A stretch of DNA of 64,000 bases from Azolla caroliniana (taxonomy: Eukaryota; Plantae; Polypodiophyta), in contig JBHGNT010000007.1 of NCBI GenBank assembly GCA_043228905.1, forward strand, positions 3,224,001 through 3,288,000, read 5' to 3'. Shown in pieces: positions 4,971 through 35,274 of the stretch. The notes under the pieces are model-generated. The model had not been told where the DNA came from, did no database searches, and saw only the letters and a program-made list of their open reading frames with translations. Within the stretch, counting starts at the first letter, position 1, and each line of letters opens with the position of its first letter. Both the position numbers and the translations under genes were made by a program.

Positions 4971-4972
4971 GG

Positions 4973-5374
4973 TTGTACCTAATTTAGAAATCCACGAAAT
5001 TGAGACCTTGTACCATCAAACTTGGCCGGTAGACTAATCTTTGGTTCTTTCGGTGAAGTTTGAACTTCCATCGCATGTCATCGCAATAGAGTAGCCTCCA
5101 ATTGATGCACCCGTTGAGATAACTCTTCAAATTGTTGTACCTTCTCAGCACTTACTTTTTGTAGGTCGCCTAACAATCTTTGATTTTCTTGTTCCAGGGC
5201 CATGAATTTGGTTGTTAGCATATCGAGTTCGGAGAGAATGCGTATATATTCTTGCTTGCTGACATACTCCATAGTTACAAGAGAGATTTGCTAGATTCGC
5301 TTGAATAAGTTTAACAGAAGAAGAAGAAGAAATTGGAGAAGAAGAAAAGAAGATTTGGTTCAAACTGTCGAGAC

Positions 5375-5427
<53 letters not shown>

Positions 5428-5777
5428 GATAAGAAATGGAAATGAGATTATATTATGAGGAAACAAGGTTACAAAGAGTAGGCTAAGGGCTAAAGACTTG
5501 TGTTGAACCATAAGGAGTATTCTAGAACATTCTAGAACATTCTAGATAAGGAGTATTCTAGAATGTTCTAGAATATTTTAGATATTTATGATTTTTAATA
5601 TAATCATGGAATATCCTAAAATGTTCTAGAATACTCTAAATATCTTGTAATAACTAATAATATATTTATTATAACTATACATCATATATGTTATTATAAT
5701 GGTTAAAGGTCTAACATATAGACTAAGATGTATTGGGCTTGAATTTTTGTAAGGCCAAAATGTATGTCTTCATGACA
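4973..5777 (-). mobile_element. Probable LTR (5366-5777) plus the start of the internal region of another LTR retroelement, with a short coiled-coil ORF (5272-5078)
   Basis: Minus-strand TGTCATG...CTCGACA termini, TTCTAGAA repeat cluster and CT/CA microsatellite. It is followed by ORF MEYVSKQEYIRILSELD...LEQENQRLLGDLQKV. It separates two GC-rich gypsy fragments. Confidence 0.45.
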
Positions 5778-5779
5778 CC

Positions 5780-6400
5780 AGCAAACTGCACATCCTCCGG
5801 CATGTGCCAAGTAGTGAAGCGGTGGGGATTCCGGGTCAGCCTTTACTCATCCACCTCTAATCTGTTGCCCATCGGATCCTCGTTGGCATCCTCTTCTTCT
5901 GCGCCCGAACCTGGTTCCCGCTCGTGTCGCTTCTTGAAGGCTTTTATCCACTTCCCCGCGACCGGTACCGGGATCCTTGTCCCATCGAACTGCACTAGCT
6001 GGTAAGTCACGTTATCATTGGTGGTCGTTACAACATATGAACCGAACCACCGCTTTTGCAAATTTCTGGGTTGACCAGTGCTGGTTGTCATAGACCAACA
6101 CCTAGTCGCCCTCTTCGATCTTCCTCGACCTCAGTCGATGCGTCTATTCGAACCGATCTTCGTTCCTCTCCCGCGCCACCTATAGCTTTGCCTTAGCTCA
6201 TTCTATGTCCTCCGGTTGTCTCTCGAGTTGCTGAATCCGAGCGGCGAGCCACTCTTTCCGACTCATCTTGTCCACCTAATCTACTGCCATCCACGATGTG
6301 ATCGTTCATTCTACTTGCATGATGGGCTTCTGTCCGAACATGAGTTCGGTCGGCATGTATCCAGAGATTACTCCAGATCAGATACAGGTCATGCCATGTA
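5780..6400 (-). mobile_element. Ty3/gypsy integrase C-terminal fragment (second copy), pseudogenised
   Basis: Minus-strand translation gives TGYMPTELMFGQKPIM... and KRWFGSYVVTTTNDNVTYQLVQFDGTRIPVPVAGKWIKAFKKR (GPF/Y-like module). It is interrupted by stops. Confidence 0.8.
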
Positions 6401-6454
6401 CCAACGAAGTTATCCAAAAACGAACTGGATAATCCCTCTCTCGTTCCACTCACC

Positions 6455-6640
6455 GGCTCCTTGGTCTGAGACCCCGGTGGTCCCACCCCGTTTCAACACA
6501 TACTCGTGGATATCCGCGACAACGCGAAGTAGAGAAGAGAGAGTGAGAGACCGGGGTCTCACCCCGTTTCAACACATACTCGTGGATATCCGCGACAACA
6601 CAAAGGTTTCAACACATACTCGTGGATATCCGCGACAACA
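6455..6640 (+). repeat. Gypsy LTR 3' end with the terminal ~33 bp triplicated
   Basis: TTTCAACACATACTCGTGGATATCCGCGACAAC occurs at 6491, 6567 and 6607. The preceding CTTGGTCTGAGACCCCGGTGGTCCC resembles the LTR end near 61280-61338. Confidence 0.7.
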
Positions 6641-6646
6641 CAAAGT

Positions 6647-6686
<40 letters not shown>

Positions 6687-6690
<4 letters not shown>

Positions 6691-6890
6691 AGATGGATGT
6701 AGCTCAGTTGGTAAGGTTGCCCAATGGAGACCAGGTGGTCATGGGTTCAACCCCTACATTCCACAATGGCATTTAGTGAATCAAGAGATATATATGAAGT
6801 ATATAATAGAGAGAAGTAAGAAAATTGGGTTTCGAACCCAAAACGCAGTGCTTGTAGTGTTAACAACTTACCACTAGGGTAACCTAATTA
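6687..6890. mobile_element. tRNA-derived SINE-like repeat with two convergent Pol III heads, copy 1
   Basis: Plus-strand A box TAGCTCAGTTGG (6700-6711) and B box GGTTCAACCCC (6744-6754). Minus-strand A-box-like TACCCTAGTGGTAAG and B box GGTTCGAAACCC (~6827-6884). Flanked by GA repeats. A second copy lies at 32722-32919. Confidence 0.7.
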
Positions 6891-6959
6891 CGAGAAAAAA
6901 GAGAGAGCGAGAGCGAGTGTGATGCACAGGGAAACATAGAGAGTGTGAGCTGCAAGAGA

Positions 6960-7870
6960 AAAAGAGAAAAAGGTGAGAGATAGAGTGTATGAGTGAATAA
7001 GAAGAAAACAAAGGGACAGACAAAAGGTAGTTGTGGTTGGGGATTGTTGAAACCCCAGTTGTGGTTTCAGATGCTCAAGAGTTTGAGCAACACCATCACC
7101 TATGCAGGTTTAGTCGTTCCATATCTTCTTCCTGTTTCTCTCTGTAAGTGTTGTTTTTCTTCAAGGTTGTGGTATCATGAAAGTTCTTGGTGATTCCTCT
7201 AGTGAGCTAAGGGGAGCTCTTGCTACCTAGTTGTATTGTCTCTAATTATCGTGAAGTTTTAGTGACCGAAGAGCACCCGTGGTTTTTTCCCTGATTTGGG
7301 ATTTTCCATGTAAATCGTGTGTTGCTTGATTTCTTTTTTATGTTTCAGCATATTTGTTGTTTATCTCTGAGTGTAAATCACTTCATAGCCGACATGAAAG
7401 TCGACTAGTTGGGCCGACTGGAAAATCGACCCAAGAGTTGATTAGTCGAATGATCGACTGAGATTAATAGTAATAATAATAATAATAATGAAAGTTATGT
7501 TTCTAAATAGCCCATATTGTGTATGAGTATAAATACACCTAGGGCAAACATAGTGAGAAAAGTAGTGCAGAACATAACTATTACAAAGTGTTTTCTGTAC
7601 TGAGTTTAATAGAGAGTAAGACAGAGAGACGCGAGAGCGCACGACAAAGAGTGGCGACATAGTTTAGTGGAACTTGCCTTAAACCCTAAGGAGTATTCTC
7701 TAAAGAGTTTTGTAATCTTCTTTTCTCCCTGTAATCCTATTGATATAATGGAATATCTATTCCCGTAGTTTCCACCTGTTTAGGGTTTCCACGTAAAACT
7801 GTGTACTGTGTATTTTGCTGTTTTTTTTCTTGTTTACTGTGTGAATACTTCAGCACATCTTTCTCGTCTA
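6960..7870 (+). mobile_element. Two LTR-like remnants (probably copia LTRs)
   Basis: The motif CCCGT(G/A)GTTT...TT(G/A)GG...TTTCCA(T/C)GTAAA occurs at 7276-7314 and 7762-7797. It matches the reverse complement of 59630-59666, inside the copia LTR. Boundaries are uncertain. Confidence 0.45.
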
Positions 7871-7879
7871 CTCATGGAT

Positions 7880-8200
7880 CTAACCTCCATGCTTTTCCCA
7901 CAACTCGTCCCCAGGCATAAATCCTCTCACAACATGCTTTGCAAGAAGAGCCTTACTCTTGAGCAAAGGATCTAATAAGCCCAATCCACCTACACTTATT
8001 GGTCGGATTAAAACCAACCAACCAACTTTTGCAACAGCCCTTGATCCCAATGGAGCACCCCGAATAAAATTATGAACTAAGCGTTGTAGTTTCAATATAA
8101 TAGAGCGTGAAAATTACTAGGTTGACACAACTTACCACATTGATGCAAGCAAAACTGAGATTGCCACAACCACCCTTCCTAGTAAAGACAATTTAGTTGC
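7880..8200 (-). mobile_element. L1-type LINE reverse transcriptase C-terminal fragment
   Basis: LQRLVHNFI...AKVGWLVLIRPISVGGLGLLDPLLKSKALLAKHVVR matches the W...P...GGLG motif typical of plant L1 ORF2. Confidence 0.7.
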
Positions 8201-8328
8201 TTCCATACTAGTTGCCTCACATGTTCAATATACAAGAAGTGGGTTTGGACAAGAACTACGAGACTCATTAGTTATACATGTTTTGTCCAAACAATTTCAT
8301 GAGTACGAATATCACATTCTATTGAACC

Positions 8329-8880
8329 ATGTTCCACCTTCATCTATAATCAAGTTTTCTTTTCCCGCATTTTCAATTGACCTATCCCAATATACGTTTC
8401 TTTCTGACACGTAGTGTGCAATTTTAATTACGTCATTCATCAATAGAAATTCTTGAATATCAAGATTCACTCTTCAAGTCGACGCACAAAACATCGAAAT
8501 GTTTCATAATTTGGTCCCAAGCGTGCACCTTTAATTATGACATTCATCAATAGAAAATCTTGAATATCAAGATCCACTCTTCATGTTCCACCTTCATCTA
8601 TAATCAAGTTTTCTTTTCCCGCATTTTCAATTGACCTATCCCAATATACGTTTCTTTCTGACACATAGTGTGCAATTTTAATTACGTCATTCATCAATAG
8701 AAATTCTTGAATATCAAGATCCACTCTTCAAGTCCACGCACAAAACATCGAAATGTTTCATAATTTGGTCCCAAGTGTGCACCTTTAATTACGACATTCA
8801 TCAATAGAAAATCTTGAATATCAAGATCCACTCTTCATGTCCACGCACAAAACATCAAAAAAAATCATAATTTGGTCCCA
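8329..8880. repeat. Tandem duplication (~253-bp unit with shorter internal sub-repeats)
   Basis: CATGTTCCACCTTCATCTATAATC starts at 8329 and 8582. ATTCATCAATAGAAA..CTTGAATATCAAGAT occurs four times. Confidence 0.85.
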
Positions 8881-11800
8881 TAGGTTCAACTATGGAGGAT
8901 AATAAAGTATATCTATTTATTTCTCATCAAAGAGACCAATCAGCATATCGACGGTGTGTGCACTCCAAACTAACTTAAGCACAACTTGGTAAGGTGCTCA
9001 AGAAGATGCATCAAGCCAATCAATAGGGAAAATGTGTGATTATTTGTAGATGTTACGCATCATTCAAAAGATTCTCAACCACATGATAAGGTATACTACT
9101 TCGAACAAGCTTTGATCCTATACATCATGACTCATAATTCTAGGTTCTCAAGACGTTAGAATATCGTTCATCTCCCTCTCTCTAATCATTAGTTATCTCC
9201 CTTGGAACCAATTTTTTCCTCTTCATTGCAAAATGATTATCATCATTCAATCTGTACCTTCACATTAATATCCAAAAGAGTTTCATCTTATTAACATTTA
9301 TGTAAAATAACCGTCATAATATTTTCACTTGATATGAAACCTTAAGAAACATACAGGCCTACGAAGATTTATAATGATGGGACCTAATATAAATATCTAT
9401 CACTACTTCTGTGGTCAAATGGACGAGACACACAATGTCAATAAGTTATGGTATATGACATTCAAGTGAAGATAAAGAAAGCAAAGGTTCAAACTTTCAA
9501 GGGAAGTACTAAGAGAATTAGTGCATATTGTGGTGTATTTGTATGGGTCATTTCAAGCTTGCATGAATGTGCGCTAGCAAGAAGAACTCTTTTCCATGTC
9601 TCTCCATATGCATGTTGCTTCAACAATCAAGAATGGATTGTTCCAACATTTGTCAATATTGAGTATGAAATAAGATCATTGCAATTACAAGCATTGTTCA
9701 TGGAAAACATTTTGTTGAACAATAGAAGAAACTCTCAATCCATTGCCTTAGTTGAGCTTTTCAATATTTAATTATTGTCAAAAACACACCAATATTATTC
9801 AACTAGTTGTTTAATGACCAATGATAGAGTTCCTTTTTGTAATGAGCATAAATTTCCAATCCTACATGTCGGGAATTACAGTTTACAAGTTTTTAGTTCA
9901 AATTAGATGCATAAACGTACTCACTACAAAAAAAAACTTTTAATGCACTCATCATTTATACAGTTCATTCCTTCATTACTTCTTACTAGTGTAAGTTTTA
10001 AGTTTTAACCCAGCCTCCATTATCTATGTAAATGACTAAGGACTCTCAATGGACCTCGTCATTTATTTTACACATGTTTATCTTGTTTACACGTCTATAA
10101 GGATCATTATTCATACAATTTCCCTTCCTTTACAAAGTCTGACAAATTCTAAAACCAATTGGTCTTTTCTAGCTTGTCTTGAAAAAGTTGTACCAAATGA
10201 TGATTTTTCGTAAGCCGCAATAAGACTTTCCCTTATGAAACTTTATTTGGCATGCACGATGTTTTGCATTTGAATGCTTATTAAATTGACTCCATTACAT
10301 GAAATCAAGGCTAATTTTAAGGACTCCATGGCCAATTTCTCTAACTCTGAGGGAAAAGAAAGAAAGAGTGTCAAGGCAAAGATATAGATAGTGAGATCTA
10401 ATTAAATTAAGTAATTGGCCCAAGTTAGTTACCCATCTATCAATAACATGTTCTTATGTTTTCTTGTTGCCCTTACCTATCGAATGTACTAAGGTACTTG
10501 TGGATAAATCAAACGTAATCTAGCATTAACATTAAGACATTGAAACTTTAGTAAACTCTAGTGCATTATGTCTCATTTGTAAATGTACCAATGGATATAA
10601 ATTCACTTATACGAAACTACAATACCATGCATATAGACATCTGTAAAAAGCAAAACATCACAATAAAAGCATCTAGTTAGTTTCAGTATAAAAGAGACTA
10701 AAGTATTATACCACAGAACAACCAGTTAGTATTTTTAACATCCCGTAGTTTTTTAAAAGCATAACTAATTCATACCGAAATGCATTGTCTCTTTACAATG
10801 GCAAATGTAAAAAGACAATACATGTTAACGTACATTGGTACTTTCACAACATTACCTTTTTATACACAAAACCTTGTCTTATTACAATTCTTTAATTGAG
10901 ATGTATAAACATGATTGTCCAACAGCCAAGTTTTTGTTTTGTGACCTTAAGGTTGTGTGATTTGAATGAGAGAATGAAGGTGACTTGATGTTTTGTAAAC
11001 TTTGTTATTGCATTTCTCATTATTTGTTTTTGAATATTTACCTTAACATCAAATACAACCTCCTTAGAACATCTCATGCATTAACATTAAATGAAATGTT
11101 ATGTGAAATTATCGAGGCCAACCTCACGACAGCAGCAAGGCTCAAGTAATGAATGAAAAACAATGTATTTCTAGTTAAAGTTCTAGACATTTAGAGATCC
11201 CAATAGTTCATTACTTATGGATTGAGAGTTATAAACATATTGGTGTAGTAGTTGGATTGTGCCTTATAACATTAAGATTATATGTGCAACTTGAGCAATT
11301 AGTTTGATCTCATGTTCACTATTTTAGTTTGAGTTATTTCATTTTTTTAACTCTTCGTTATTTTAGTTTGAGATTTTTCCTACTGACCATTTGCTAATAC
11401 GTGGAGTTATATAAGATACACACACTCCACAACATCATCATTTAAAAAGAAAATGTTGAAAAGTAATTATTTCCAATTGTAGTGTTGTCAAGAGTGGACT
11501 CTTATGCATTACCCACCTATCATACAATGAAAAATATTGTGAAGGTACATCATGCTTGACCTGGTGACATGACCAACAAGCAAATGAAATTAATAGACTA
11601 TTGCATCAAGGAATGCGTCGAAGTAATAAACTCATAATGAAGGTAACTCTCCTTGAAGGCGACAATGCATTTTCATTAATTTGAATTGACACGGAGATAA
11701 AAAGGTAGGCATCTGGAGATAGTTCAAACTTTAAAGAAATGAACGAATATCTAACCTTGTCTTTTTTGTCTGATAGGAAGTAGACAAGGTCCAATGTCCA

Positions 11801-14054
11801 AGGCATACAAAAACATGGAAATTAATACAGTAATATGCACATCAAAATTGACGAAATTAGTAACTTTACTAAAAGAACTGATAAAAGCAACAAGACAATA
11901 TGGCTTTGAAGCACAATGTGAAAGAATGGCCTCTTTAAATCATAGTTTAGATACCACAATTACTTATCAAGATTCTATTATCAATATTCAAAGCATGTTG
12001 TAGACGGGTATACCTAGTGATGTGCAATGTTAAGTGTGTGTTTGTTTTACATGTGGTGTCCATTTTCATTACTCTCAACTTTTGGGCATAATGTTGTTTT
12101 CTCCTAAATAAATGTCTTAAAACCCTCAACATTGTCATATTTTTCAGCAAGGGAAACGACGCCAAGGCAATGCTAGAGGGGGCCACCCAATGTATGGAAT
12201 AAGTAAAAACATGGATGCTACACCACCTATCACCCATGCTTGGAACTTTAGCCTAGAAATTTACATATGCTGAACAAAAGTAAAATTCTTTATTTGAGGC
12301 AGGAGATATGTGGTTGAGTTCAAGAGATGGAATATGGATATGCTCCACAAATATCATAGAGGACAATGCCTAGTTAGACATTGTTTAATTGCGCCTTGTG
12401 GAAACATTGACCAACAAATAGAAAGAAGGTACAAGGCATAGCAATAACATGTCGGGAAACCTACAGGAAATGTTAGCATGTGCACAATCACACATCCTTA
12501 TCCCCGAGCATTTAGGGTGACACAACCCCCCTCCTCCACACACATAGGCATAATCTCATTATATCCTAATTTAGAGACCCTAGAGATAATAGATTTCATT
12601 TGCGGATTATGCCCTAATGAAGAGCATGATGATGAAGAGTATACATTACCCATGATGTGAAATGGTATTGTTTTCTAGAACGTTCCTTGCATCCCTTGAT
12701 AAGCCAAATGTAATGCAATCTTATATCATTGTATCACATTGACGACAACTATTCCCAAACATACATTTTATGCGAGAGCATAGGAAACCTTTTAGGAGAT
12801 TTGGTGCCATAATAAATGGAGGAGACTCTTGTAATTTTTGTGCAAGTCTCACCAAGTCATGAGGGCCCTCAATTACAAGATAAAGATAATCTTGCATTAC
12901 GCATCGCAAGGCAACCACCCACATGAGACACTCTCTCAACTAACAATGTCATGATAAATTTTAGGATAAAATCTTGGTGGTGTACTATCCTTGATAACAT
13001 AGTGTATATAGAGTGTATAGCAATGTGAAATGTCAAGCTATGGTCGGGATACTATTCATTTCTCTCATGGGCCAATTTGGTCTTAGACGAAGTTAATATA
13101 TATTTCTTTCTTTCTCAAATAGTGAACACATCCCAACACACCATGTTATCTTCCTTGAAACCATTGAGTACTCACTAAAGTTTTTTATGCCAATCCTAGT
13201 CCTCCTAAAAGGATCCAACAATGGATACTAATTGAGATCAAACCCAAATTACCTTGAACCTAAAGGTAAAGAGGTTAAAAAGATGCATCAAACCTAATAT
13301 TTGGCTTGATGCATCTTTCTAAGACTTATTACCAAAGCACTCAACCTCCCCTATTGGCATAGTGACCCCTTGGAGTCTACATTTAGTTTCTTTTTTTTCC
13401 CCGGAAATGTTTTAACCCCGATAGTTGTCAAACTTCTAAGAGGTGGAAATTTCTTTGTACTCTCTTACAAGTTGTGTTTCTAGCCTTGGACTCATCACTA
13501 TCCCACATAGATAACACTAAAGGGGACAATCCCGTTGCGAGCCAACTCATACGAGCTTGTCACCTATCATTGTCAAATATAATCTAGTGACATTGTCTAG
13601 TGTGTGCATTGATAACATGCTCCAATTTTTATAATGATTCTCGATCGATTAGACATGTCATAGCGGCACTAGCAAGTGGGCAGGTATACCAACCTTGAGT
13701 AGCTAGTTCATACCCTAGAGCTTATATATACATGTACAATATTGCATAATTAAAAATACATTGTGTTACATAAATCTATTTGCATGTAATGATGTATATT
13801 GCAGGATATGGAGGCATCTTCCAAGGGGGTTTTTGTGATAGGTTTGATTATCAACATGACCTATCAACCAATCAAGCCTAAACCTCACTTGTTTACCAAA
13901 TATATAAAGATAGTGTAATAGTTTTTGTTTATTAGATTCCCAAGGTTGATTAGTGTTCATTTTCCGCTTCTCGATCGGACAAACGATATAGAGATAGTAT
14001 AATATCATTTCGGTGGGTTAGAATATAGATATATGGGTAGTGATGGCTTGTGTG

Positions 14055-14255
14055 TTATGTATACATATGTCACTATGTGTGTGTGTGTATGAATGTATGT
14101 ATGTATGTGTGTGTGTGCGTGTGTGTGTGTGTGTGTGGATGTATGTATATATGACATATGTATGTATGTATGTATGGATGGATGGATGGATGGATGGATT
14201 GTGTGTATTGTTATGTATGTGTATGTATGTATGTATGTTTGTATGTTTGTATGTA
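14055..14255. repeat. Compound microsatellite (TG)n/(TATG)n/(GGAT)n upstream of the KNOX-like gene
   Basis: Directly visible low-complexity tract. It explains the spurious ORFs at 14005-14336. Confidence 0.9.
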
Positions 14256-14809
14256 AAACTTGAGACATATCTTATCCAGCATAATTCCATGTATAAGGAA
14301 GGAGGCAAATCATGTCTAATCATAGCATCATCATAGGTACATGCATGGTACAGTTAGCTAATAAAGTGCTTTCACACCTGACACCCACACATACCATCCA
14401 GATTAATGACATATACATATTTGACTAGATCATGACAGTCCCTTTCACACACATACACACATACACACACAATCCTAATGAATGAGATGGTCCCTTTCAA
14501 TGCAAACACAAGCAAGCAAGCAAGCTCATATATAGACAAGCTGCAGATTAATTGCATTGTACAAATCACTACAAAGTTACTACAACTGATCTAGTGCCGG
14601 CCCTCTCGCTCTCGCTTACATGAGTGGTGCCCCGTGGGCCGTCACCGAGAAAGAATCTCCGCCCCGGATGAACCAAAATTGCCCATTCAATACTCTTTAA
14701 TTTCAGCACACACACACTCCCTCTCATCACAATATTATATATGTATATAACTCTTAGTGGATTTAGTAGTGATACCTTAATTTAGTTAGCTAGCTAGGTT
14801 AGAGTGACC

Positions 14810-16001
14810 ATGGATCAGCTAGCTCATGTGTTGCAAGAAATCATTAGTGATCATCATCATCACCACCACCATCATCATCATGACACCATTGATCAAAGAG
14901 GATCAATTGACAATCATCATCATTGTCACAAGTATTTTCATTATGATGATGATGATGAGGATAGTGTGAATGACCATAATACTGCACAATGCCATGGTCC
15001 ATCTTCGATACTATTCGAGCCGACCAGCCGTAATTCCCTGCAAATTATGTCTGCCACGATGTTACTGTCGCCCAGGACATCGAACGCCTCCAGCTCGGGC
15101 TCCACATTCCATGGCGAGCAAAACCACTACGATGATGATACTATGCCCGATGATTATGCGACCATCAAAGACAAGATCGTTGCGCACCCCAGTTTCCACA
15201 AGCTTGTGATTGCATACGTGAATTGTCGGAAGGTTCTTCTTTTTAATGATTTCCATGGCCATGCTATGCTGCAATTGATGTTGTCAAAACCCTAAATCAG
15301 CTTAAACCAACTCCTAAAAAGAAAAAGAAACCCTGAATTCAATAGTTATTGGAATTAATGCAAATAAAATTCTAATAGCCCTTATGAACCTGCAGGTTGG
15401 TGCACCTCCACATGTTGTGAAGAAGCTTGATGAGTTAGTTGTGAGGATCATCGGCACTACTGATGATGATGATGCTGCTGCTGGTCATAGTATTGCAGAT
15501 CGTAGTAGAGGACAGCACTCGGTAGGGGCATCTGCAGCTGAGAGTGATTATCACAACTCCATATCCAGCTATGGTGACAATCACGATCGTCATATAAACC
15601 AATCAAACTGTTTGGAAGAAGTAGTTGCAGGATCAAGTGACCCAGAGTTGGATGATTTCATGGTAACTCCAAAAGAGAAGGGAAATTTTCATTATACGGT
15701 TTGTGGGATTGTTAATGAACGAATACAGATCCTTCTATATATATATGATTGGCGGTGCTTCTGCAGGATGCATACTGTGAAGCGTTGCACAAGTACCATG
15801 AGGACCTCATCAGGCCTATGGACGAAGCCATGGCATTCTTAGCCAATATCAAGTTGCAGGTGAATAATGAGGATTATAACGCTACTATGCTCATGGCCAC
15901 CAAAGACAACAGAGATCATCATCACCACCACCATCACCATAATTACAACCAATATGCAGGTCATCATCTCTCTGCCTCAATAACTTAACAGATTCTTTGA
16001 T

Positions 16002-16063
<62 letters not shown>

Positions 16064-17083
16064 TAAGCAGTTTTATAGTGTATATTATGAACTCTGATCC
16101 ATTCATTAGTCATCCCAAATAGGCCCTCCTAAATGCATATATAAGATGCTTATTCACTTGCTTGAGAAATGAAACACTAACTAGAGATGATACTGGTCTA
16201 AGGATCGGAACACTGAATATTTCTATGATTGTTCACATCAATATATATCTGAGGTAGATGATGGAATTATCACCGGAGAGTCAGAGACTGTACTGGCCAC
16301 CCGGTAATGTGTCATTCTCGTATACCATATACTCACAGTGATTAGCTGCTATGGACCATCTTAGATCTCCACTTTTATGTTATCTGCCATGCTAGTATGA
16401 TCGGCCCAAGGTCATCTTGATCGATCTGGAGGCCATTGCACACACTCTACTCTTCTAAAGATCTAAGAAAGTTAGGGTGCCCTGCAAGTACCCCACGCCC
16501 CATGCATTGGCTGAAAATATAATTGGGCCACCAAGCAAGCCATGGTTTCTGGTGGATTGTATCAATTCATCCCCCTTACAAGCGGGTTGGCCAGAGTGGT
16601 CCACAGCAACCATCTCCATGCCTCTTTCTCTGTAAACCCACAAACAGTTCATGCCTTGAATTATATTACTCTAGAGCAAATATCACATTGCAAAATATAT
16701 CATGTTTTAGCTCGATCCATTCCCGATCTCACTCCTACGAGCTATGTACTAGTATTGTACATCTCACTCTCAGGAAAAGATGAAGTGATATGGTAGTGGT
16801 AGAAGTCTATACCATCATTCACCATAGCCATATGTATAGTAAATGCATGTGATATTGGCATATCTCTGTGTGTGTGGTGTGAAGGCTGCGCACCATATTT
16901 GTCATGGTCTCTCATTATATTCAAATGTCTTATGTCGAGGATGCAGGGTTGATGGAGGAGGTGATGGACGGGATTGGGGCAGATGAGCTCGAGCTCAACG
17001 GAGATAAAGAAGAATACGATGACGATTTATATGAGTATGGGGAATACCTGCAGGGATACTACTCCGACAGCTATGGATCATGA
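14810..17083 (+). CDS. Class I-like KNOX MEINOX-domain protein apparently lacking ELK and homeodomain (KNATM-like architecture); exons 14810-15232, 15396-15662, 15767-15959, probable 16947-17083
   Basis: KNOX1 motif IKDKIVAHPSFHKLVIAYVNCRK|VGAPP and KNOX2 motif DPELDDFM|DAYCEALHKYHEDLIRPMDEAMAFLANIKLQ are joined by in-phase GT-AG introns at the usual class I KNOX positions. The N-terminus is His-rich. A phase-compatible last exon encodes an acidic tail GLMEEVMDGIGADELELNGDKEEYDDDLYEYGEYLQGYYSDSYGS*. The alternative is a stop at 15988 if intron 3 is not spliced. Confidence 0.85.
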
Positions 17084-18121
17084 GGACATCCAAAGTTGTG
17101 CTAAGCTATATAACTGCAGGCTTAGGTATATCACGAGTTGTGGGACAATTTAGGAAGGAAGTTAACTGTTGTAAGCTCAAAAATATGTATTGTGTTCTAA
17201 TTTCTTGGTTTATTTTAGATGATGTTTTGCTATATTCCTATTGTGGGTGAACACAGGTCTCCTACTATTTTACTACCGCATCCCCTTACTAGGTTGCTCT
17301 TTCAATATGAAGCAAATTTGTTATTGCAAGTAGGACTAGGACATCCATCAATACAGACGAATTTTTTATATTAGCAGAGTCTAGTCAGCCAGCTCGACGA
17401 ATCTGGACGTAATAGAAAAAACAATTCCCTTCGAATCCCTCAGTTCAAGAGGATCATATAATGTTTTAATGAGCAATTGTGAACATATGGCATCCATAAA
17501 AATGTTTCGAATTCTAATGCTAGAGACAAAAATGAAATTTGGGTCAGAAGTATTTGATACATAATTATTCCATGAACTCGGTGTTTGCAAGCCTGCATCC
17601 ATAGGTCTGCCTCTCCCACAAACACCTAGTCTTAAATACAAAAGTAATGGTGCTTAGAATATATGTATATATATACTATTGCCAAGCTTTTACCAAAGTC
17701 TTAGCTATACAGGGACAATATTCTGAAGACTGCTAGGCGAATGCCAAAAGCAAAATGATAAATCTTTGGCAATTACATCACCAAAACAAGTATAAAGCAA
17801 GCTCACAAATAGAACATAATATGAGAAGCACAAACTTCTTTAACCAAATGAAAATGGAAACTTATTACAAATTAATGCCTTGCTTTTCAGAAACTCAACA
17901 CATAAATAAAGTTGGAAATTACGATGACCTAATGCCTGCATAAGTTAAAGACCATGCAAGCAGTACAAAGTCTTCCAACCATGAGAGTGATTTAATATAT
18001 CGGTTATTCTTTTCTTTCTAGGATTGAACTATACAAAAGATATACTAAGATTTCAAAATTCTTGTTAGCAACCATATGCTATTTACATGTTTTCTGTTTA
18101 CCCACTCTTTATAGGGTTGAA

Positions 18122-21100
18122 TTACATACTGTTATGATGCTCACCTCTTCTAGGACACACAAGAGGAGCTATCATTTCCATCTCATGAACACTCACTCCA
18201 AAATTACACATGTTTGCAAAAGCTCTAGTATACTTAAGGCCATAGTTTGCCAATGGTCCACAATGCTTCTCAAAATTCCGCACCTTCAGAAAAACAAAAT
18301 AAAGTTCTTATCAGGCATTGCAAGGTCTCTTGTACAAGACAAAACCAAGATAATGCACAAAACACTAAAGAACCTTGCAAAATATTAAGAAACTAAGACA
18401 ACTGAGAAAAATGCAAAATGTTCTTTTCAGCTTGGCAAACCCTCATGTAAAATAGAGAACTAAGACAAGTACAGAGCAGATGCTCACCATGTCTTTCAAG
18501 CAATCCCAATCATCAACTAGAGGCTGTCCAGATGGGCGTTTATCTTCTAACGAAAAATGTCCACTGTCTTTCAATAAGAGAAGTTTCCCTATACTCCATA
18601 CACTCCTATCGATGTGCCTTCTATGTGCCAAAGCCATAAAAAGTTCGTCCTGTGCATCCATCTTTGCATTTGATCCCTCATGTGCAGCCTTGAACTGCAA
18701 ACATGTTCAAAGTAAGACCTTGCTAAAGACCTTTTCATCAATAACATCAATGTTTGAATCACCAATACAAGAAGCAAGGTTTGAAACCTCTCAAGAAAGA
18801 CCAGCCATCTCATTATTTACATAATTTAACATGTGATCCTAAATGAGAAGCCCTAGTTGCACAAACAATGCAGAGCATAAAGTCTTAAAAATTACCTTGT
18901 GCCAAAGATAGAGAATATCTGCATCTCTTTGCATCATAGCTACCATTCCTATCCTTTGGTGATTGAAACGATGTCTTAACAAACCACTAGATGGCATTTC
19001 CAACTCAACTTCACCGGTGGTAACGTTCTCCTTTAATGGATCACTACCCAAGTACAGACAAAGTTTCTCGTTGGCCAAGTCAGCACTCCCATAGCACATC
19101 ACATGTGATCCAGAAGTGTAGGTATTGTAATTGGATGTTCTCATTTTGACCTATAATCCAAATAGCAAATGAATACGAAATTTGATCCACAGCAACTTAA
19201 ATTCCCCAATAATGTTTAGGCAGTTAGCACTCTTACAGCATCATACTGTTCTTGCAAACTCCACAATTTGAGATTTTGAGATTCACTGCCATCAAGGCAA
19301 CATATAAACTCGAAAAGAATCAAAGAAAATAAAAAGTAACAGCAAAGGAATTGGATAACACAAACACATACCTGTCTTCCATCCAAGATACACTATACAA
19401 ATCACCAAGGCATGTTATATACTCAGGTGGCGGCGGAGGAACCATGCCTGGGCAATAGGTGCCCCAGCTGCTCTCCTCCGCATTAGAAGCAGTGGTAGCA
19501 TATATGCTTAAGTTATTGGGAAGAAGCCCTTCGAAAATGCTACCACTTTCACATGCTTCCAAATAGACGACCTGCTTACAAGAAGCCAGACAGAACACAA
19601 TAAATTCTTGATACATCATAACGATGTCATCATTCATTATACTGAAATGTCCAACGAGTTAATGACACAACCATCTCTTTGTAGCCATTAGCTTCATGCT
19701 TCTTTTTGAATGCCTCCACTAGCTCATTTGCATAAAGATTTGGTTCAGTAGGCATTCCTGAGTATCCAATTCCTTGACAGTTAAGATTACACAAATGCTT
19801 GAATAAACCAACAGAGAAAGTTTCAACAAAAAATAATCGCAATACCTAGCACTCCTGGACCTCCATGATCAGAATAGAACACAAAGATATGGTCTTCTGG
19901 ACCGCTTTCTATAACCTTCCCACTACCACCAGTGAGAGCACTCTTGTTTCCAAGAAATGCAGCCAAAAAGTTGTTTACAGTCACATTAGCTCCAGTATAA
20001 TCCTGGAGATGGGAAATATTAGCCATTGCCATAAAAAAAAGAAAAGCAGAGACATAAAATATTAAATTAAACAACAATGTAATATAAAACAAACCTTGGG
20101 AACTCCCTCATACACATTCTCTCCATTTGGATTGTTAATGATGGTGCCAGGGCGAGGGTTCAAGGGATTTCCAGCAATATCATCATACATAAAAACGACT
20201 ATGTTCTCTTCTTTGAGACCACCTTTCCGCAGCACTTGGTATGCATGACAGACATCAGCCTATGATCACGCCGAAGATCATAAATGAATAAAAAACAGCA
20301 CAAATGGAACGAATCTTAATACCATACAAATTCAGATGGCGTGAAATGAATAACTAAAAAACAGGAGCAAAGGGAGTGCCGAGCTTCAACCTCATACACA
20401 GTCAGAAGGTGTGCAGAAAGATGATCCATCAAATAATGTAAAATTAGAAACTAATCCTGCACTTGCATGTGAACTTCAGGTACTAAATATAAGTAAAAGA
20501 GATGCATGACAGATATCAGTCTGCATCCAAGATTATGACAAAGTAACGACAACAAACAAATAGAAACATGACTGAAAACCTGTGTTTTCACTAAACATTC
20601 CTAAAGGCAAATGAGATATTGAAACGAGAGGTAAAAATATGGCAAGTGGCCTGCAATTTGACGTTAAACCTTAATCAAGCAAACACGCATAAGCATAACA
20701 AAAGGCTGCTTTGATGTAAATCTGACTGAATTGAATAGTACAAATATAATATAATCATTGTTCCTGAGAGCACAACTGAGTATTTTCATGTAAAACTCAT
20801 TGAAACGGAGGCAATGAGATGTTGAAGGGAAGAGTGTATTTGACAAAAGGCCTCCATGGCAGAAATTGACCAAAAAACCGAGTTTAAACGCATAGCATTT
20901 GCTATATAAACCTTATCAATAGGAAGACAGAGAATCGCATGACTGAGAAATCATCCTGTGCAAAAGATATTGATCAAGAAAAGAAAAGAAACTAACAGAA
21001 AACGCAATGAAAATAATGCATTTGCATGTAAAATGTTTTGATTGAGAAGACCAAAGCAGAAACGAACAGGAAAATTTGACCAAAACAATGATCTGCATTT

Positions 21101-21201
21101 GTCATTGTAAACATTCTATGAATGAAAACAAAAAAAGCAGACATCAGCGTAATGCACGGCAAGAAATGGGAAAGAATAGAGGAAATATATATATATGTAT
21201 G

Positions 21202-21262
<61 letters not shown>

Positions 21263-21574
21263 GTATAGAGAGAGACAGAGAGAATGAAGCAAAGACTAAT
21301 AGTCACTAACCTGATGTCTGTAATTTCCATAGCCAGAAGAGCCAGCGATGATAATGGCCCAGCGAGTACTGTTTTCATCTGCACAGTTAGAAGAAGGCGA
21401 AGAAGGGACGGAGATGTCATCCACAGCCACAACATCTCCAGGAGATCTTCGTCTCCATCGCAAAGCTCCATATCCACTACTACCTCCAGCAAAGGCTAGC
21501 AAAGACAGCTGCACCACCAGAGCGATGGTGGTGAAGCGATGGAGATGAAGGCGGAGAGGGTGAGGATGCGCCAT
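18122..21574 (-). CDS. VPE: Vacuolar processing enzyme / asparaginyl endopeptidase (legumain, peptidase C13), ~9 exons
   Basis: Signal-peptide-like N-terminus, then [18 protein letters not shown]|[14 protein letters not shown]...; catalytic His in [12 protein letters not shown] and catalytic Cys in [13 protein letters not shown]; [13 protein letters not shown]; [15 protein letters not shown]; last exon [27 protein letters not shown]...* (stop 18122-18124). GT-AG junctions are consistent. Confidence 0.96.
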
Positions 21575-21723
21575 GGAAGTTGAGGAGGGGGGAGGTGGGA
21601 TTTAGGTGTGAAGGCGGTCGTCTCCATGGCCATGGTGGCCACCCTAAACCCTTTCTTCGGCCTCAGAACCAGAATAGCAGGCAGAGTTTCTAAATGGAGA
21701 CGATCATGATGAGATTACTCACT

Positions 21724-22090
21724 CTCTTCTTTTTCTTCTTCTTCTTCTTCTTCTTTTTTCTTTTTGCTTTTCTTTTTGCTTTTTCTTTTTCTTTTGCTTT
21801 TTCCTTTTCCTTTTCTTTTTCTTTTCCTTTTTCCTTTTTGCTTTTCTTTTTGCTTTTTCTTTTTCTTTTGCTTTTTCCTTTTCCTTTTCTTTTTCTTTTC
21901 CTTTTTCCTTTTTTCTTTTCCTTTTTTCCTTTTCTTTTTCTTTTTCTTTTGCTTTTTCCTTTTCCTTTTCCTTTTCCTTTTCCTTTTCCTTTTCTTTTTC
22001 TTTTTCTTTCTCTTCACCTTTTTTTCTCTCCTCTTTCTCTTTCTCTTTCTCTTCTCCTCCTATTTTTCTATCTCTTTCTCTTCTTTTTCG
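21724..22090. repeat. Long polypyrimidine/polypurine hexamer tract (CTTTTT/CTTTTC/CTTTTG)n just upstream of VPE
   Basis: About 370 bp of almost pure C/T on the + strand. It generates the Phe-rich and Lys/Glu-rich ORFs in the track. Confidence 0.95.
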
Positions 22091-23852
22091 AACCATTCCT
22101 TCCATGCGACTCAACTCACATGCATTACAATATGTGACATGGCATTGGGGCACAAGTGATGAGAGTGGTCGGCTATGCACACTTTCCCCTAAACAAGTTT
22201 GAGCGTCTGAGTATCACACTTTGATACAATACTCTGCCTTTGATCGTATTCGACCATGCTTTCCACATATCTTCGACTAAGCCCAATCCTTGCACGAATT
22301 TCTCTCACAAGCATAATGTGCACTCTCGATTGGAACATTCATTAGTGAAGTTCTTGAACATCGAGAGTTGCTGCTCACTTTCACACGCATCACGTGAAAT
22401 GTAATATTTTTGGTCTCATAGGTCATATTTGACCTCCGAATACGATAATAGAATCTATCTATCTATCTCTTTCTTCCTTCTCTTTTGCTTATTCTTTCTT
22501 TTTCTCTTTCTCATTGGTTTTTTCCATAAATCTATGTTTGTTATTAAAATAAGTTGATAATACACCCCAAGCTATCTCGATTCTCCACTCCTACATTAGT
22601 AGGGAATTGACGTTAAGGTAAACACTCTCCAAGTCTCTAATACTAGATGACATGAATCTACCTCATCTTGGGACAACCTCCCCATACAACATAGTTGTGA
22701 AAATTGCCAAATCAACTTCCCTTGCATCCTACATATTTGTTGTGGTACATCATGAAGTCCATCAAACCCCCATTTCTCATATTTTTTACTTTAGTTTCTT
22801 CTTCTTTCTCTCTCCCTTTTCTTTTTCTCTTTTCTCTTACATCAAAATTGCATCAATTATTTTAGATCTGTTGTTAATGCTAATCTTGTTGTGGAAGCAT
22901 CAAAATAACAATATATAACCAAGAATAAAGCTATTAGATAGAGTAAGAAGGAAAAAGAAAACAAAACCAGAGAAGAATACAAATTTGAGGATGCCAAACT
23001 AAGAGGAAGCGGAGCTTATTTATAACTCCCAAACCACCTCCCCAATTCCCCATTTCCGATGTGGGATAAAGAATGGGCCAAAAAGTTAACAAATCCTTTA
23101 CACCAACATTCAATCTAGTTATTAGATTCTAATGATGAACCTTATTTCCACTTTCAATTTCATTATTATGGCTATCTCCTAGCAAATTTGAGAAACTAGA
23201 TGTAAAATACATGTATGATTTTGACCTATCTAGACCACACATACCTAATGACAAGAAACACCCTCTTCCCTAGCATACATTTTACATGGACAATTTATGG
23301 AATTAAATTCCAAAACAAATCTATCATTGAGGGCTACTATTGATTACTAGAGATCTTACTAGTCTAGCAAAAAATAGTTTAATTTCCAACCTTACATGTG
23401 TGTTGCAACCTTCAATTATAAAGCCTTTGACAATGTTCTAGATACATTAATTGCAATTGTTATCAAAGAACTAGCTATCTGAACATGCTTAAGAAACATT
23501 AGACTACTTATAATTGGTGATCAATAGCTTTTACTAAAGGCATATTAACAGTTGCTCTAAAACAAAATACATTTGCAAGAACATATGCCTTTCAAATCTA
23601 GCCCCACACGTTTAAAATATATGATTCTTCATCATTGGGACCGTAACATTATCATGATATTTCAATTTTAATTGTCACATTTTCATCTACAAAAATTAAA
23701 TTGTGCAGAATTCGCCAAACGATGATGATGAGACGACTTCACAGCTATGTCAATAATGAAAACAACGCCTTTTTCTATTTAAATTCTGAATAAAATGCCA
23801 ATGCTCTCAAATAAAACTTTCCAATGAGACCACCATCACCTAAAAGCCCTTG

Positions 23853-26800
23853 TCAGAGCGAAGGTGCTGTAGATAAAGCCTGATCTAGATCTGAAATCAA
23901 GTCGTCTACATCCTCAATGCCAGCCTGGAGAACAAAATATTCCACAGCTAAATAGGAAAGACAACCAGGCAATTCTTGGAACAAGAACTGGAATCAGAAA
24001 CAACTTGCTCACCGATAGTCGAATCAAATCTTCAGTTAGACCACGAGCTTCTCTCACACTAGCAGGAATGCTAGAATGCGACATAAAGCATGGTAGACTT
24101 ATTAAAGAATTTACGCTACCTGCAAAACAAATTATAATGAACTGATTCAATGACATTTTATATTCGATTGCACATATATAATTTAATAGCATTATAAAAA
24201 TATGTAGCTATTCACATTGGCTATGGAAAACACAAGGTCCAGAATATGAATACCAAAGCTTACTGTTATGTTGAAAAGTTTTGTGCTCTCCGCGATATGC
24301 TTAGATACTGCCAAGGACCCTGTAGTAAAGCTTAACACAGATCCTGGTCCCTTGGCCTGTAAGCGTAGAAACCAAAAGAAAAAACTATTTTATTGTTGTT
24401 AACAATCTCAATTTCTCTCTTTCATTTCAGTCGGGAGAATTTGTGTATTTCTGCATACCTGTGAGAAGTGAAGATCCCTTCCAGGATGGCCTAGTAACCC
24501 AGCATAATTGACTTTCTTCACCCGAGGATGAGAAGAAAGATATTCTGCAATTTTTTGCGCATTACACTGAAGCAAAGCAATATACTTAGGCTTAAAGGCA
24601 GATGCGTATTAACAGGACAAAATGGCTTATAAATTAGATCACATGTGGAGATTCCTCATCCTTGGAGAGCAAAGAAAGCAATGAGTTAAAGAAAAACAGC
24701 CTAGAGTACATAGTCTCTCTACCCTACAAAACTTTTGGCAGAGGGAAACCTTTTAGAGAAATTATAAACTAGCTTTCATTCAGATACTATTTTAGCTCAT
24801 GCATTGAATTTTCAATGTATCAATAGTCAGCTGCACGCTCAACTCCACAATATTCTTTGTTCCGCGAGAGAAGTAAATTTTCCATACCTGCTGCTTCTCA
24901 ACTCGGAGGGCCATCGTCTTTATGCCTCGTAAACAGAGCCAACAATCAAACGGTGCCAAGCCTGTTCCTTCTGCATTTTGTAGAAAGTATACCTCTTTTC
25001 CCAAACTGTCAAAATCACATCGAAAGAACATCACATGGGGGGGAAATGAATTGATAACTAGACATCAAGTGAATGAGCTTCCTTTATTACTCACCATAAC
25101 TCAATCAAGACTAATGTAGCCTGAATAATAATAAAAAGACAATTGTCAATATCTCTAACCTCTCACCCTTGACTGCAAGAACTCCTGCCATCACATCACT
25201 GTGTCCTGAGATGAATTTGGTGGCCGAATGCATGACAATATCTAAGAATAGACATTATACCGATCTTCTGATGTCAGACAGCGTAGAGAAAACCTCAATC
25301 ACAATTTTAATGTTAGAAGAAACAGCTCACCTGCCCCAAGATCTAGGGGCTTGGAAAGCACTGGGGACATAATGCTATTGTCCACCATTACCAATGCACC
25401 ATGTTTGTGAGCAATTTTTGATATCTCCTGAAGAAAAACAAAGAGATACCATATGTATGCCTCCACAAATGCAAATGCTATTTTAAGAGAGATTTTCTTC
25501 AAACATATTGGAATGATGAGACTTCCTTTAAGCCAATGCATTTAATTGATAAGTTCAGGAGGAAAATGTCAAAGAGCTTTATCTTTTGACTAGATTGGTT
25601 ATATCCCTCATTCAAACAATTGCAAATTGCATCGTGCCATCTTACATTACAAACCTGTGAAAGTGCTCATCTTTCATTTGAGAAAAAAACTTTCATATCT
25701 TGACGCCTACCTACATTAAAATATAATCAACTAGCCTATCTTTTTCAGCAACGGTACATTGCGCTTTCAAACTACAAGTTCTATTCAGGGATGGATTCTT
25801 TGCCAATTCGACCAAGGGTTATGGAAGAAACCTTGGAGAAACTCTAAAGACTCATGAAATGAAAGGTATGATTGGTTGCAAAAATAAGAAACGAAAATCA
25901 CACAGGCAGATGGAGAAAACGGAATATTAAGCCTGATGACAACAGTGAAATGAACAAATATACAAAAGACCATGCACAACACAACCTTATCAGCAAGGAG
26001 TATCATAGTTCTGACAAAAACCTCAAAGTAATGAAAATGACTTATATCGTATATTACTCTCAGGCTCACATCATTTTTATTATGACTCAACAGAAAGCCA
26101 ATATTTGGAAAAGAAGAGACAAGATTGGTATATTGACACACATTATAGTAGAACCTCTCAAGCCTTCATTAGAATAAGATGAGAAGTTAAAGACACAGAA
26201 AGCAAAGAATTCAGGTGCCATATGGGGGGGTAAACAGGTCACTTTTGACCCCGAAAGATGACAACATGATTCATCTGCCTTTCTTTATGTTATAATTAAT
26301 GATGACGGCTACTTATCTTCAAGAACAGCTTTGTTATGACTTACTTTAATGTCAGTTATCATTTGGCGTGGATTGGTAGGACTCTCAAGCCAAACTATCT
26401 TTGTTTTAGGACCAATGGCAGATTCAATTTCTTGCAAATTTGTAGTATCCACTCGTCTACAATAAAAAACAATAGTTCATAAGGAGAATTCTATTGTAAC
26501 TTCATTTACACGAAGAATTAACATAGCTTTTCCTTTTCGAGAGTAGACCACAAATTATTCATAAATGGTATAAATACTAGCATCCTGAATGGCCATCACT
26601 GCAATCAAATCCTATGCAAACTGATGTCTTGTAGATAGTACAAATGCTATTAAAACACCATTTGAATCAGTCCTTAGGGATCAACACTATTATAACACTG
26701 TAAGTGCATGAAACATATGCTCCTAAATATATATTTACATGTATATATATGTGTATTATATATGTGTGTAAATGTATGTATGATGTCATAATTATAGAAC

Positions 26801-29131
26801 TGCAGCAAAACTTATATGAATCATAGATGCAGGGCATACTTACTTTACAACTAAACCTGCCCTAGGTGCTATCTGAGAAAGTAGTCTGTCTGAACCTCCA
26901 TAAATGTCATCACCCACAACTATCTCCTCTCCTGCAAAATTATTTTGCTACAACACGCAATCAAATTTTCTTATCCAGCAGGGGGGGGAGGAGACAATCC
27001 AATCCTAGAAACCTTTACCTGCCCTTGCAAGATGAGTAACTGTGGACAGTGCAGCCATGCCACTACTGAAACAGAACGCTCTGTCTGCACCTTCTAACTT
27101 TGCTAATAACCTGCGTACAAACATATCTTTAGAGTTGAAAAATTTTCTATGCATAAAAATGGGAAAATTGTTATACATTAGTATTTCAATTTGTTTGTTC
27201 TCCAAACTACTTCACAAAAAAGTTACTCCTTGCTCCCATGGATACGAGTTTAGCAAATTAATTAAGTAAATCTCTCTTGCCTCTCTTAATCAATTTACTG
27301 ACGTCTTTTCCATGAAATTAAAGAATAACATTTTGACCAAACATAACTATCATCAGGAAGTAAACAAGCATATTTTTTGGAATTCTCTTGCATACAAGCA
27401 TGTTTACGCAATTTTTCCAAAATAAATATAGAATGCTTACGTCTCAAGTGCAGTTCTGGTTGGATTCCCGCTTCTTGTGTAATCATAACTTCCATACTCA
27501 GTTGCCGAGGGCTGAATGTGGACAGATAAAATAACTTCTATAAATTTCTGACAATTCTCATATCCACATTTTTGTTTATTGAACTATTTTAAAGAAGGCT
27601 TTAAGCATGCTTTCACCTGCTTGAATGTTGCAGTTTGATAAAGAGGAGTACTGAGAGCATTGTAAGGGTCAAATGTGTTCGAAAAATTTAATATTGTAGT
27701 GGATACACCAAAATCTTGAGATCCTAAAAATCAATCCATTTAATGGCCAAATAATATCATGAGCCCACTGTTAACTGAAGAATGAAACAACTAACATTAG
27801 AGACCCAAAAAGAGTAGGCACATCCATTACTCAGACAAAAGAAACTCTTGGAGCTGAAACCCTATATCTTTTCTACCAATCAGATCCCTCCAACTCCATT
27901 CTAATTTACCAAATGTATCTTGTATGTAACAGATTTTATAATAATCACCAGTATATAGAGAAAGAATCAGAATGAACGGTACATTGAGGATGCACATTAC
28001 ATATAGATGATAATCTGCACGCAGTAATCCTGTATCCTTGTACTTGTCTAGACTATGCGAGTTTGACATGTCACTGTGAGAGTCAGATTCTCTAAACTCC
28101 ATGATTTGAACATAGGTGAAATTCCAATTCAAATAGTATCTAATGTCCACTGATCATTTTTTTCCAAGTCTTGTAGGCAAAGTTCATACACTGAGATGAT
28201 GATTTGCAAATAGTAATTGTGTATCCTCGTTGCTCCCCCTAGACTTTGATCAGCATCACCTTCTCTATTTTACATCATCTGCCCATAGATGATAGGACTG
28301 CTATAATTCCACCTCAGCAATCATCGTTTTTACCTTAATTCATACATCATGGGTTCCTACATCAGTGACATCATACATATTCTTGTATATTTCTCTGCTA
28401 GTTATTGTTCGCATGACATCTTTCTTGTTGCATTCTATGTGTACACATTTTAGTGAGAATTGTTGAAGAAAATTTCACTCCTTTCATAAATCTAAGTTGC
28501 AAGGTTTTAACAACGAAAGGCTTACCTTTCTACAAGTGGTAGAATGGTGTGCCATGCATAAATGATCTCCTCCCTTGATTGTACAGGAAAAATCTCAATC
28601 TTTCAATTTTAAGCATAAAGTTTGCTATTAACTCCTTGCAAGATAATCTCTCCTTCTATTTTACTCATCACCATGATTATGCTTCACTTTTGTGGGATAA
28701 CAATGGATGTAAAATCATCTTTCCTTTCACTTACCATCACTGTTTACTTTCTCTTTGAGTTAAAATTTAAAAGAAACAAGTTTTTTTCTCGAGAGTAACA
28801 TTGTCTTTCCTCACGGCAGCCATGATGAAGATTTGCTTCACCTGGTTTCTTCATTGATCAATCAAGCTATGACTAAAATACATATGTTGAAAACCTTCGC
28901 CACTGAAATGCTTTTAGAAATACCCTCACTCTAAAATACATCAATCAAAGCTCTTTCACTAAAATGGATCGATCGAATCTCTCTCACGCAATATGCATAT
29001 ACCAAATATCTCTCTCTTGAGTGCACCTTCTAAAGAATCCTTCTCTCTCTCCATGCAAAATGCATGGGGGGAACTTGCCACTGATCCAGAAGATGAGTCC
29101 TTGTAAAGAGAATTACTATCTGTCACTATCT

Positions 29132-29171
<40 letters not shown>

Positions 29172-29499
29172 AAATGGAAATTTCAAAACTCGCTCTCTTA
29201 ATGCATCTATCAAAGCCCTCTTTCTCTTTGCATTAAAAAATGCATGGGTGGGGTGGGGGGAGCTTACTGTTCGTCCCCGAAGATGAATCCTCAGGAAAAG
29301 AATTAGTATCCATGTGAGAGGAAAGAATGTCAGGAGAAGCCTTTAGTGAGCAGCTAAGTTGCAGAAATCTCCTGATTCCCCTCCTTTGGCCGCAGCTGCT
29401 CTTCAGTGCGAGGTCCCACGGCCGATTGATGTCGATGGAGCTGGGATGCTGTGCAGCACGGAAAGGATTTTGGACCTGCACTGCCATAATTCCGCTCAT
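23853..29499 (-). CDS. CBL: Cystathionine beta-lyase, plastid-targeted (Cys/Met metabolism PLP enzyme), ~13 exons
   Basis: Transit-peptide-like exon 1 ([10 protein letters not shown]...); [19 protein letters not shown]; [11 protein letters not shown]; FSSGMAAL; [10 protein letters not shown]; [15 protein letters not shown]; [10 protein letters not shown]; PLP-lysine motif [17 protein letters not shown]; [19 protein letters not shown]; [15 protein letters not shown]; LIRLS|[13 protein letters not shown]...*. The start could be 29499 or 29487. Confidence 0.95.
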
Positions 29500-29633
29500 G
29501 AATGTCGAAATGATGGGAGTGTGTGTGTACAGTGTCTCTCTGAGTGTCTGTGACTCTTGTAAGCAGGAGGAGGCCTATAAAGCATTTGGGTGGGGTCCAA
29601 GTTACAAGGCCATAGAAGAAGAATGCCTGCATG

Positions 29634-35202: not shown

Positions 35203-35227
35203 ATGGGTTTCTCTATCTTCGAGGTAC

Positions 35228-35274
<47 letters not shown>

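Follow-up and report, generated by a model that had tools for sequence, protein, structure and literature searches.

KNOX-BELL pairs govern meristems, the dissection of leaves and the switch between gametophyte and sporophyte. Their dimerization is mediated by MEINOX (PMC8476127). The closest described systems to the locus presented here are KNOX proteins that lack a homeodomain. KNATM and PETROSELINUM (PTS) are reported to interfere with KNOX-BELL dimers and to compete for BELL partners (PMC4335488, PMC4673312), with KNATM described as restricted to eudicots and as forming a clade of its own, separate from classes I and II (PMC4617109, PMC12300509, PMC9538144). The liverwort proteins MpKNOX1A and MpKNOX1B are described as liverwort-specific and as expressed in antheridia and sperm, and BELL sequestration has been proposed for them (PMC8476127). 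Among ferns, a survey reports class I KNOX in three copies, all four domains being included in the analysis, and class I KNOX expression that is not switched off in the incipient primordia of divided-leaved species (PMC7432805), while two Vandenboschia KNOX sequences spanning only part of MEINOX were treated as partial (PMC5664125). Our search of the published literature returned no homeodomain-less fern KNOX, and none appears in the accessible text of PMC5637896, PMC9103481, PMC7352642, PMC12501142, PMC13708626, PMC3794426 or PMC4901127; the gene may nevertheless feature in trees or gene tables supplementary to published fern genomes. According to their accessible text, one KNOX survey dropped MEINOX-only sequences (PMC5637896) and another used a homeobox profile beside BLASTP (PMC9103481), and because such surveys require or search by the homeodomain, more homeodomain-less KNOX genes may be hidden.

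The window, by which we mean the whole 64-kb stretch of DNA that was analysed, carries on its forward strand a KNOX gene whose four coding exons (14810-15232, 15396-15662, 15767-15959 and 16947-17083) join into 1020 nt encoding 339 amino acids with no internal stop, in line with an earlier reading of three in-phase, stop-free KNOX1/KNOX2 exons. The three introns measure 163, 104 and 987 nt, are all GT-AG, and lie in phases 0, 0 and 1. The start codon sits in a strong context (GTGACC-ATG-G), with an in-frame stop on its 5' side. Exon 1 contributes the ATG, a His/Asp-rich N-terminus and the first part of KNOX1, which Pfam matches at the exon end (29.6 bits against a cut-off of 26). Exon 2 holds the end of KNOX1, an enlarged spacer and the start of KNOX2, with weak Pfam matches to these other halves of the two domains. 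Exon 3 encodes the main KNOX2 helix (Pfam KNOX2, 37.5 bits against a cut-off of 27, 1.7e-09), a His run and the phase-1 donor; its predicted fold is helix only (pLDDT 80-91 over residues 1-30) and adds little. Both domains are of class I type when set against a comparison set of class I proteins only. After intron 3 (15960-16946), which contains a CT microsatellite at about 16005-16061, the coding part of exon 4 supplies a 45-codon tail rich in Asp, Glu and Tyr and ending in TGA, in place of the linker, ELK and homeodomain; no Pfam family matched this exon. The preliminary description had found in exon 4 the sole phase-compatible continuation, which is incorrect, as the interval 15990-18100 holds 12 YAG sites with at least 30 open codons behind each; of these candidate acceptors, the contigs described below use 16947.

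Untranslated sequence is covered by contigs on both sides of the coding region, at 14659-14809 (run X3, from 14659) and at 17084-17252 (run X2 to 17252 and run X1 to 17231), extents that reflect the reach of the contigs and not a transcription start or a poly(A) site. Upstream ATGs at 14620, 14668 and 14741 open short reading frames of 26, 10 and 14 amino acids. Those at 14668 and 14741 share one frame, terminate 5' of the main ATG and lie within the contig-covered stretch, where they may limit translation of the KNOX protein.

Splicing could be followed in public sequencing runs, of which eight were found and seven examined (X1-X7, from four studies), none being on record as RNA. Contigs from these runs skip the KNOX introns at their GT-AG ends and therefore point to spliced transcripts. 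The joints between exons 1 and 2 and between exons 2 and 3 are listed in six of the seven runs (X1-X3 and X5-X7), and in X4 the letters of exon 1 appear as a loose end at exon 2. The join from exon 3 to exon 4 (15959/16947), proposed earlier from the sequence, is visible in five of the seven runs and three of the four studies. Exon 3 ends in a His repeat that falls within a stretch masked as repeat (15911-16069), yet the join can still be seen: a single 581-nt contig in X2 spans exon 2 to 17252 and contains the expected number of unplaced letters, 43, a loose end in X1 carries the final bases of exon 3 immediately ahead of exon 4, and X5-X7 show a joint from 15895 to 16941 with 43 letters between, a length 15 short of that in the window and hence in frame. 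Exon 4 lacks a contig in X3, and in X4 it is covered with no bridge to exon 3. No contig leading from exon 3 to any acceptor other than 16947 was seen in the seven runs, bearing in mind that contigs drop rare forms, and stretches lacking contig cover (17253-18016, most of intron 3, and exon 4 in X3) were excluded as evidence. Low-depth contigs over part of intron 3 (16304-16960) occur in X6 only and represent unspliced or intron-retaining RNA; read-through into this intron would meet a stop at 15986-15988 and yield a protein lacking the acidic tail. The same splice pattern and stop recur under at least three organism labels, and the locus is a real gene, not an artefact of assembly or annotation.

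Runs X1 and X3 each contain two versions of the gene over window positions 14810-15900, one matching the window and the other about 5% different. The divergent version shares many changes with organism D (the source of X4-X7, themselves about 5% from the window). Two versions within single runs likely reflect hybrid or allopolyploid material in which both copies are transcribed.

The absence of ELK and homeodomain sequence, claimed earlier as far as the neighbouring vacuolar processing enzyme (VPE) gene and across the list of open reading frames, holds over the entire window. Ten ELK/homeodomain motif patterns gave no match in its six frames, and a profile built from 24 fetched full-length KNOX proteins and run against 3597 six-frame stop-to-stop fragments, a scan that the preliminary description had proposed, returned nothing significant (best E 0.52). 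The same ELK-homeodomain profile detected exon-sized control pieces at E values of 2e-29, 4e-19 and 1e-7, and a whole-protein KNOX profile recovered all three MEINOX exons of the window. By Pfam and profile, the gene has no ELK domain, and by motifs, profiles and Pfam over the window, no TALE homeodomain. The best-scoring fragment, a weak homeodomain-like trace at 17737-17853 on the forward strand (8.5 bits), lies 650 nt past the KNOX stop and before the VPE gene. It outscored shuffled sequence (p 0.004 in one test and 0.008-0.016 in another) and has no Pfam match; with a frameshift-aware profile, however, 8 of 218 overlapping real tiles outscore it, and it spans a position at which canonical KNOX genes carry an intron. 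A fossil homeobox here is doubtful, and the trace is probably due to chance.

The locus is bounded by the convergent VPE (legumain) gene anticipated in the preliminary description, on the reverse strand at 18122-21601, which is identified by Peptidase_C13 and Legum_prodom matches and by a spliced contig in X4, and whose last exon and stop, at about 18122, lie 1.04 kb from the KNOX stop. A gene island at 21600-51500 starts at the VPE gene and includes a Cys/Met-metabolism PLP enzyme that is likely a cystathionine beta-lyase (about 23000-29500, reverse strand), a GDT1-like antiporter (about 35000-44000, forward strand) and Tudor-SN (about 45700-51500, reverse strand). LTR retroelements flank both sides (window positions 1-6200 and 53100-64000), where stop-containing Ty3-type pieces occupy either end of the window, oppositely oriented, and Ty1-type pieces lie at about 53100-60800. 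Directly upstream of the VPE gene stands a long tract of purine/pyrimidine simple repeats (21680-22150), and tandem repeats of longer units occur at 30770-31340 and 48660-48900, one of them within a Tudor-SN intron.

The closest named full-length proteins are class 1 KNOX proteins of the ferns Cyrtomium (AWU46637.1) and Thelypteris (AWU46636.1), which agrees with the earlier supposition of a fern or other seed-free host and would place the gene outside the eudicots, to which KNATM is reported to be confined. In an unrooted tree of class I sequences only (97 MEINOX columns, 26 sequences, with 10 of the 24 full-length proteins left out as close duplicates), the window protein is sister to these two (SH-aLRT/UFBoot 68.6/87), followed by another relative (94.6/94), within a group that includes Psilotum (80.5/97). 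Its branch is long, at 0.56 substitutions per site, and over the 97 columns it is 55-58% identical to Cyrtomium, Thelypteris and two other relatives and 49% identical to Psilotum. These comparisons suggest that the gene likely derives from a fern class I KNOX. The earlier idea of a derivation independent of KNATM thus gains moderate support from a tree that is free of KNATM and class II sequences, and the grouping argues, in a tree likewise free of liverwort sequences, against membership of the liverwort-specific KNOX1A/KNOX1B clade. In genomic read-through entries of several further KNOX genes, a Gly lies 11-17 residues beyond KNOX2 and the sequence then ceases to be related; the window gene has the same pattern, placed later in exon 3, which is consistent with an inherited third intron.

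Relatives of the gene exist, as protein pieces corresponding to exon 3 attest. Two of them, P0001 and P0049, are 92-97% identical to the window protein, and the more distant P0002 is identical at 23 of 34 KNOX2 positions, against 18-19 for canonical fern proteins; sharing distinctive KNOX2 residues, P0002 may be a more distant orthologue. A search with exons 1 and 3 among longer proteins found nothing, a weak hint that there is no annotated full-length relative, a metagenome scan for the locus found none, and a PDB search gave His-tag matches only.

Outside MEINOX the protein departs from its relatives to differing degrees. Its KNOX1-KNOX2 spacer is 81 amino acids long and of low complexity, compared with 27-38 in the 23 of 25 comparison proteins in which both motifs were matched, so that it exceeds every measurable protein by about 50 residues; this is a new feature, absent from the preliminary description. 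The His-rich N-terminus, noted there as a difference from KNATM, is not special, since His-rich runs also occur in the canonical-type KNOX proteins P0003 and P0027. The exon 4 tail contains 15 Asp/Glu, 7 Tyr and 1 Lys in 46 residues, and the last 39 residues carry a net charge of -12 with 11 Trp, Phe, Tyr or Leu. In canonical fern class I proteins, especially those of Cyrtomium and Thelypteris, the linker found at this place is likewise acidic. The tail has no detectable homology to the linker-ELK profile of canonical KNOX proteins (p 0.56), and with pairwise p values of 0.04-0.90 over 17 proteins, its derivation from a decayed linker-ELK is unsupported; the tail could be either newly arisen sequence or a linker that has drifted. 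No basic run or cluster was found in the protein, which would thus need a partner to enter the nucleus. ELK is described as a nuclear signal (PMC9538144).

Variation among the runs indicates which parts of the protein are maintained. MEINOX keeps 30 of the 32 columns conserved in 90% of 25 KNOX proteins, the two changes being Y to F and E to D. At least 41 distinct coding substitutions could be counted, and those listed comprise 24 replacement, 17 silent and no nonsense changes. Within KNOX1 and KNOX2 the listed changes are 2 replacement and 5 silent (pN/pS 0.10, p 0.004). The N-terminus and spacer together have 19 replacement and 10 silent changes, and of the five in the tail 3 are replacement and 2 silent. 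These counts are small, carry no transition/transversion correction, and omit the realigned rows at 17023-17030 and differences near contig ends. Sequence outside both domains looks to be changing close to neutrally, and because the counts are uncorrected, that change may indeed be neutral. All five listed coding indels keep the frame and none of the seven listed non-coding indels is a multiple of three (p 0.001), the latter including those that separate runs in the 3' UTR; the coding indels lie mostly within triplet repeats, which favours multiples of three and inflates the contrast, and one in-frame event is a net +3 produced by three single-base insertions. Organism D, about 95% alike, retains both frame and stop codon, the codon preceding the stop differing only silently, despite a tail that has lost 10 residues to a 30-nt deletion and gained a net 3-nt insertion. 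The neutral decay that the preliminary description gave as the mark of a truncated pseudogene thus leaves no apparent sign in MEINOX.

These data bear on several explanations of the locus. It is very unlikely that the short form is one isoform of an ordinary KNOX gene with ELK-homeodomain exons outside the window, or the product of a misjoined assembly. A long third intron often breaks KNOX models, several angiosperm entries ending there and marked partial (P0003, P0006), and a second junction could hide in the masked end of exon 3 or among rare isoforms that contigs drop; yet all contigs crossing the exon 3 end, in five of seven runs, reach 16947, and the 47 kb downstream hold four other genes and no ELK or homeodomain that could be found. 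The assembly gap that the preliminary description allowed for is absent, as the window contains no N, and in several organisms the contigs are colinear with it all the way from exon 1 into the 3' UTR, which argues against a misjoin. We consider it distinctly unlikely, if somewhat less so, that the gene is a transcribed pseudogene, in other words a recent duplicate, deprived of its homeobox and without function, that is slowly decaying. The long branch, the enlarged low-complexity spacer, the near-neutral change outside the domains, the low contig depth in most runs (depth not being an expression measure) and the possible decayed homeodomain trace downstream all fit such a history, but it accords poorly with the lack of nonsense changes among 41 listed substitutions, the in-frame coding indels, the silent bias in MEINOX and the identical splice and stop under at least three organism labels, and the KNOX2 residues shared with P0002 hint at an older lineage.

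A greater though still low likelihood attaches to a positive cofactor, in which MEINOX would dock the protein on a BELL already bound to DNA, or on some other partner, and the tail, acidic and rich in Tyr and Leu, would activate transcription, so that BELL output is rewired and not silenced. An acidic, aromatic-rich composition is typical of acidic activation domains, and the activation role that the preliminary description proposed for the tail, though weakly supported, is possible on composition. Retention of the tail frame and stop in organism D also favours a cofactor, and for KNATM a role as transcriptional regulator is described, with an acidic coiled coil as its contact to KNAT1/BP (PMC9538144). 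The same tail, however, tolerates the loss of 10 residues in a relative, three of its five listed substitutions are replacements, its acidity may be inherited from the linker that canonical fern class I proteins share, and the protein lacks a basic cluster for nuclear import. Unlikely, in our estimate, is the more specific proposal of a fern-evolved homeodomain-less KNOX whose stretched MEINOX docks on BELL while a new acidic-aromatic last exon turns the BELL partner into an activator with changed targets; if true, it would amount to a third origin of the design with a different sign of regulation.

On balance we lean, at slightly better than even confidence, toward a competitor: the product of a spliced gene that descends from class I KNOX, having KNOX1 and KNOX2 and no ELK or homeodomain, which would bind BELL via MEINOX and compete with full-length KNOX. 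A fern class I KNOX gene plausibly gave rise to it through duplication, after which all sequence 3' of the phase-1 third intron would have been replaced or have decayed. The retained MEINOX would dock on BELL in competition with full-length class I KNOX, and the resulting dimer would possess one homeodomain, not two, and might bind DNA weakly or be excluded from the nucleus, with KNOX-BELL output damped in meristems, leaves or gametophytes as the predicted outcome. Such a protein would probably resemble KNATM, PTS and Marchantia KNOX1A/B in its working while being separately derived. Several features of the sequence count against competition: the MEINOX surface might be disturbed by a spacer some 50 residues longer, the protein sits on a long branch, relatives only about 5% apart leave some room for a young, decaying duplicate, and a pure sponge needs neither a 117-residue N-terminus nor an acidic tail. 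MicroProteins are small, single-domain proteins with a size threshold of about 140 amino acids or less, and at 339 residues the window protein falls outside that class.

Beyond the locus itself, the gene offers a concrete handle on how ferns restrain class I KNOX. Structural counterparts in animals are isoforms of MEIS1/Homothorax, which likewise have a MEINOX-type dimerization domain and no homeodomain and dimerize with a PBC partner; those short forms are splice isoforms of a full gene, whereas the window KNOX is a separate gene with no homeobox at its locus. Canonical fern class I KNOX proteins (Cyrtomium, Thelypteris and Psilotum, as well as CrKNOX1/2 and Copies 1-3 as described in PMC7432805) share with it the class I motifs, the His-rich N-terminus and a phase-1 donor shortly after KNOX2, but run on into a linker, ELK, a basic run and a TALE homeodomain, whereas the window protein ends after its 45-codon exon. 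KNATM, PETROSELINUM (TKD1) and FCL1 have, from their published descriptions, the same architecture of KNOX1 and KNOX2 with no ELK or homeodomain, along with an acidic region outside MEINOX (PMC4617109, PMC4335488, PMC4673312, PMC9538144), and competition for BELL partners is likely to be common to them and the window protein. KNATM is described as very short, in a clade of its own and eudicot-only, whereas the window protein has 339 residues, a class I-type MEINOX, an 81-residue spacer and a C-terminal acidic tail. MpKNOX1A/B, compared here by description, likewise combine a class I-derived MEINOX with the lack of a homeodomain in a seed-free plant (PMC8476127), but are reported as liverwort-specific, whereas the window KNOX nests with fern class I sequences. 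Homeodomain-less KNOX proteins have so far been reported from eudicots and liverworts, and the gene of this likely fern would be a third, likely independent, convergent origin. Such modulators are reported in connection with leaf shape in eudicots and with sperm in liverworts, and a fern case would show that this tuning of KNOX-BELL pairs recurs across land plants.
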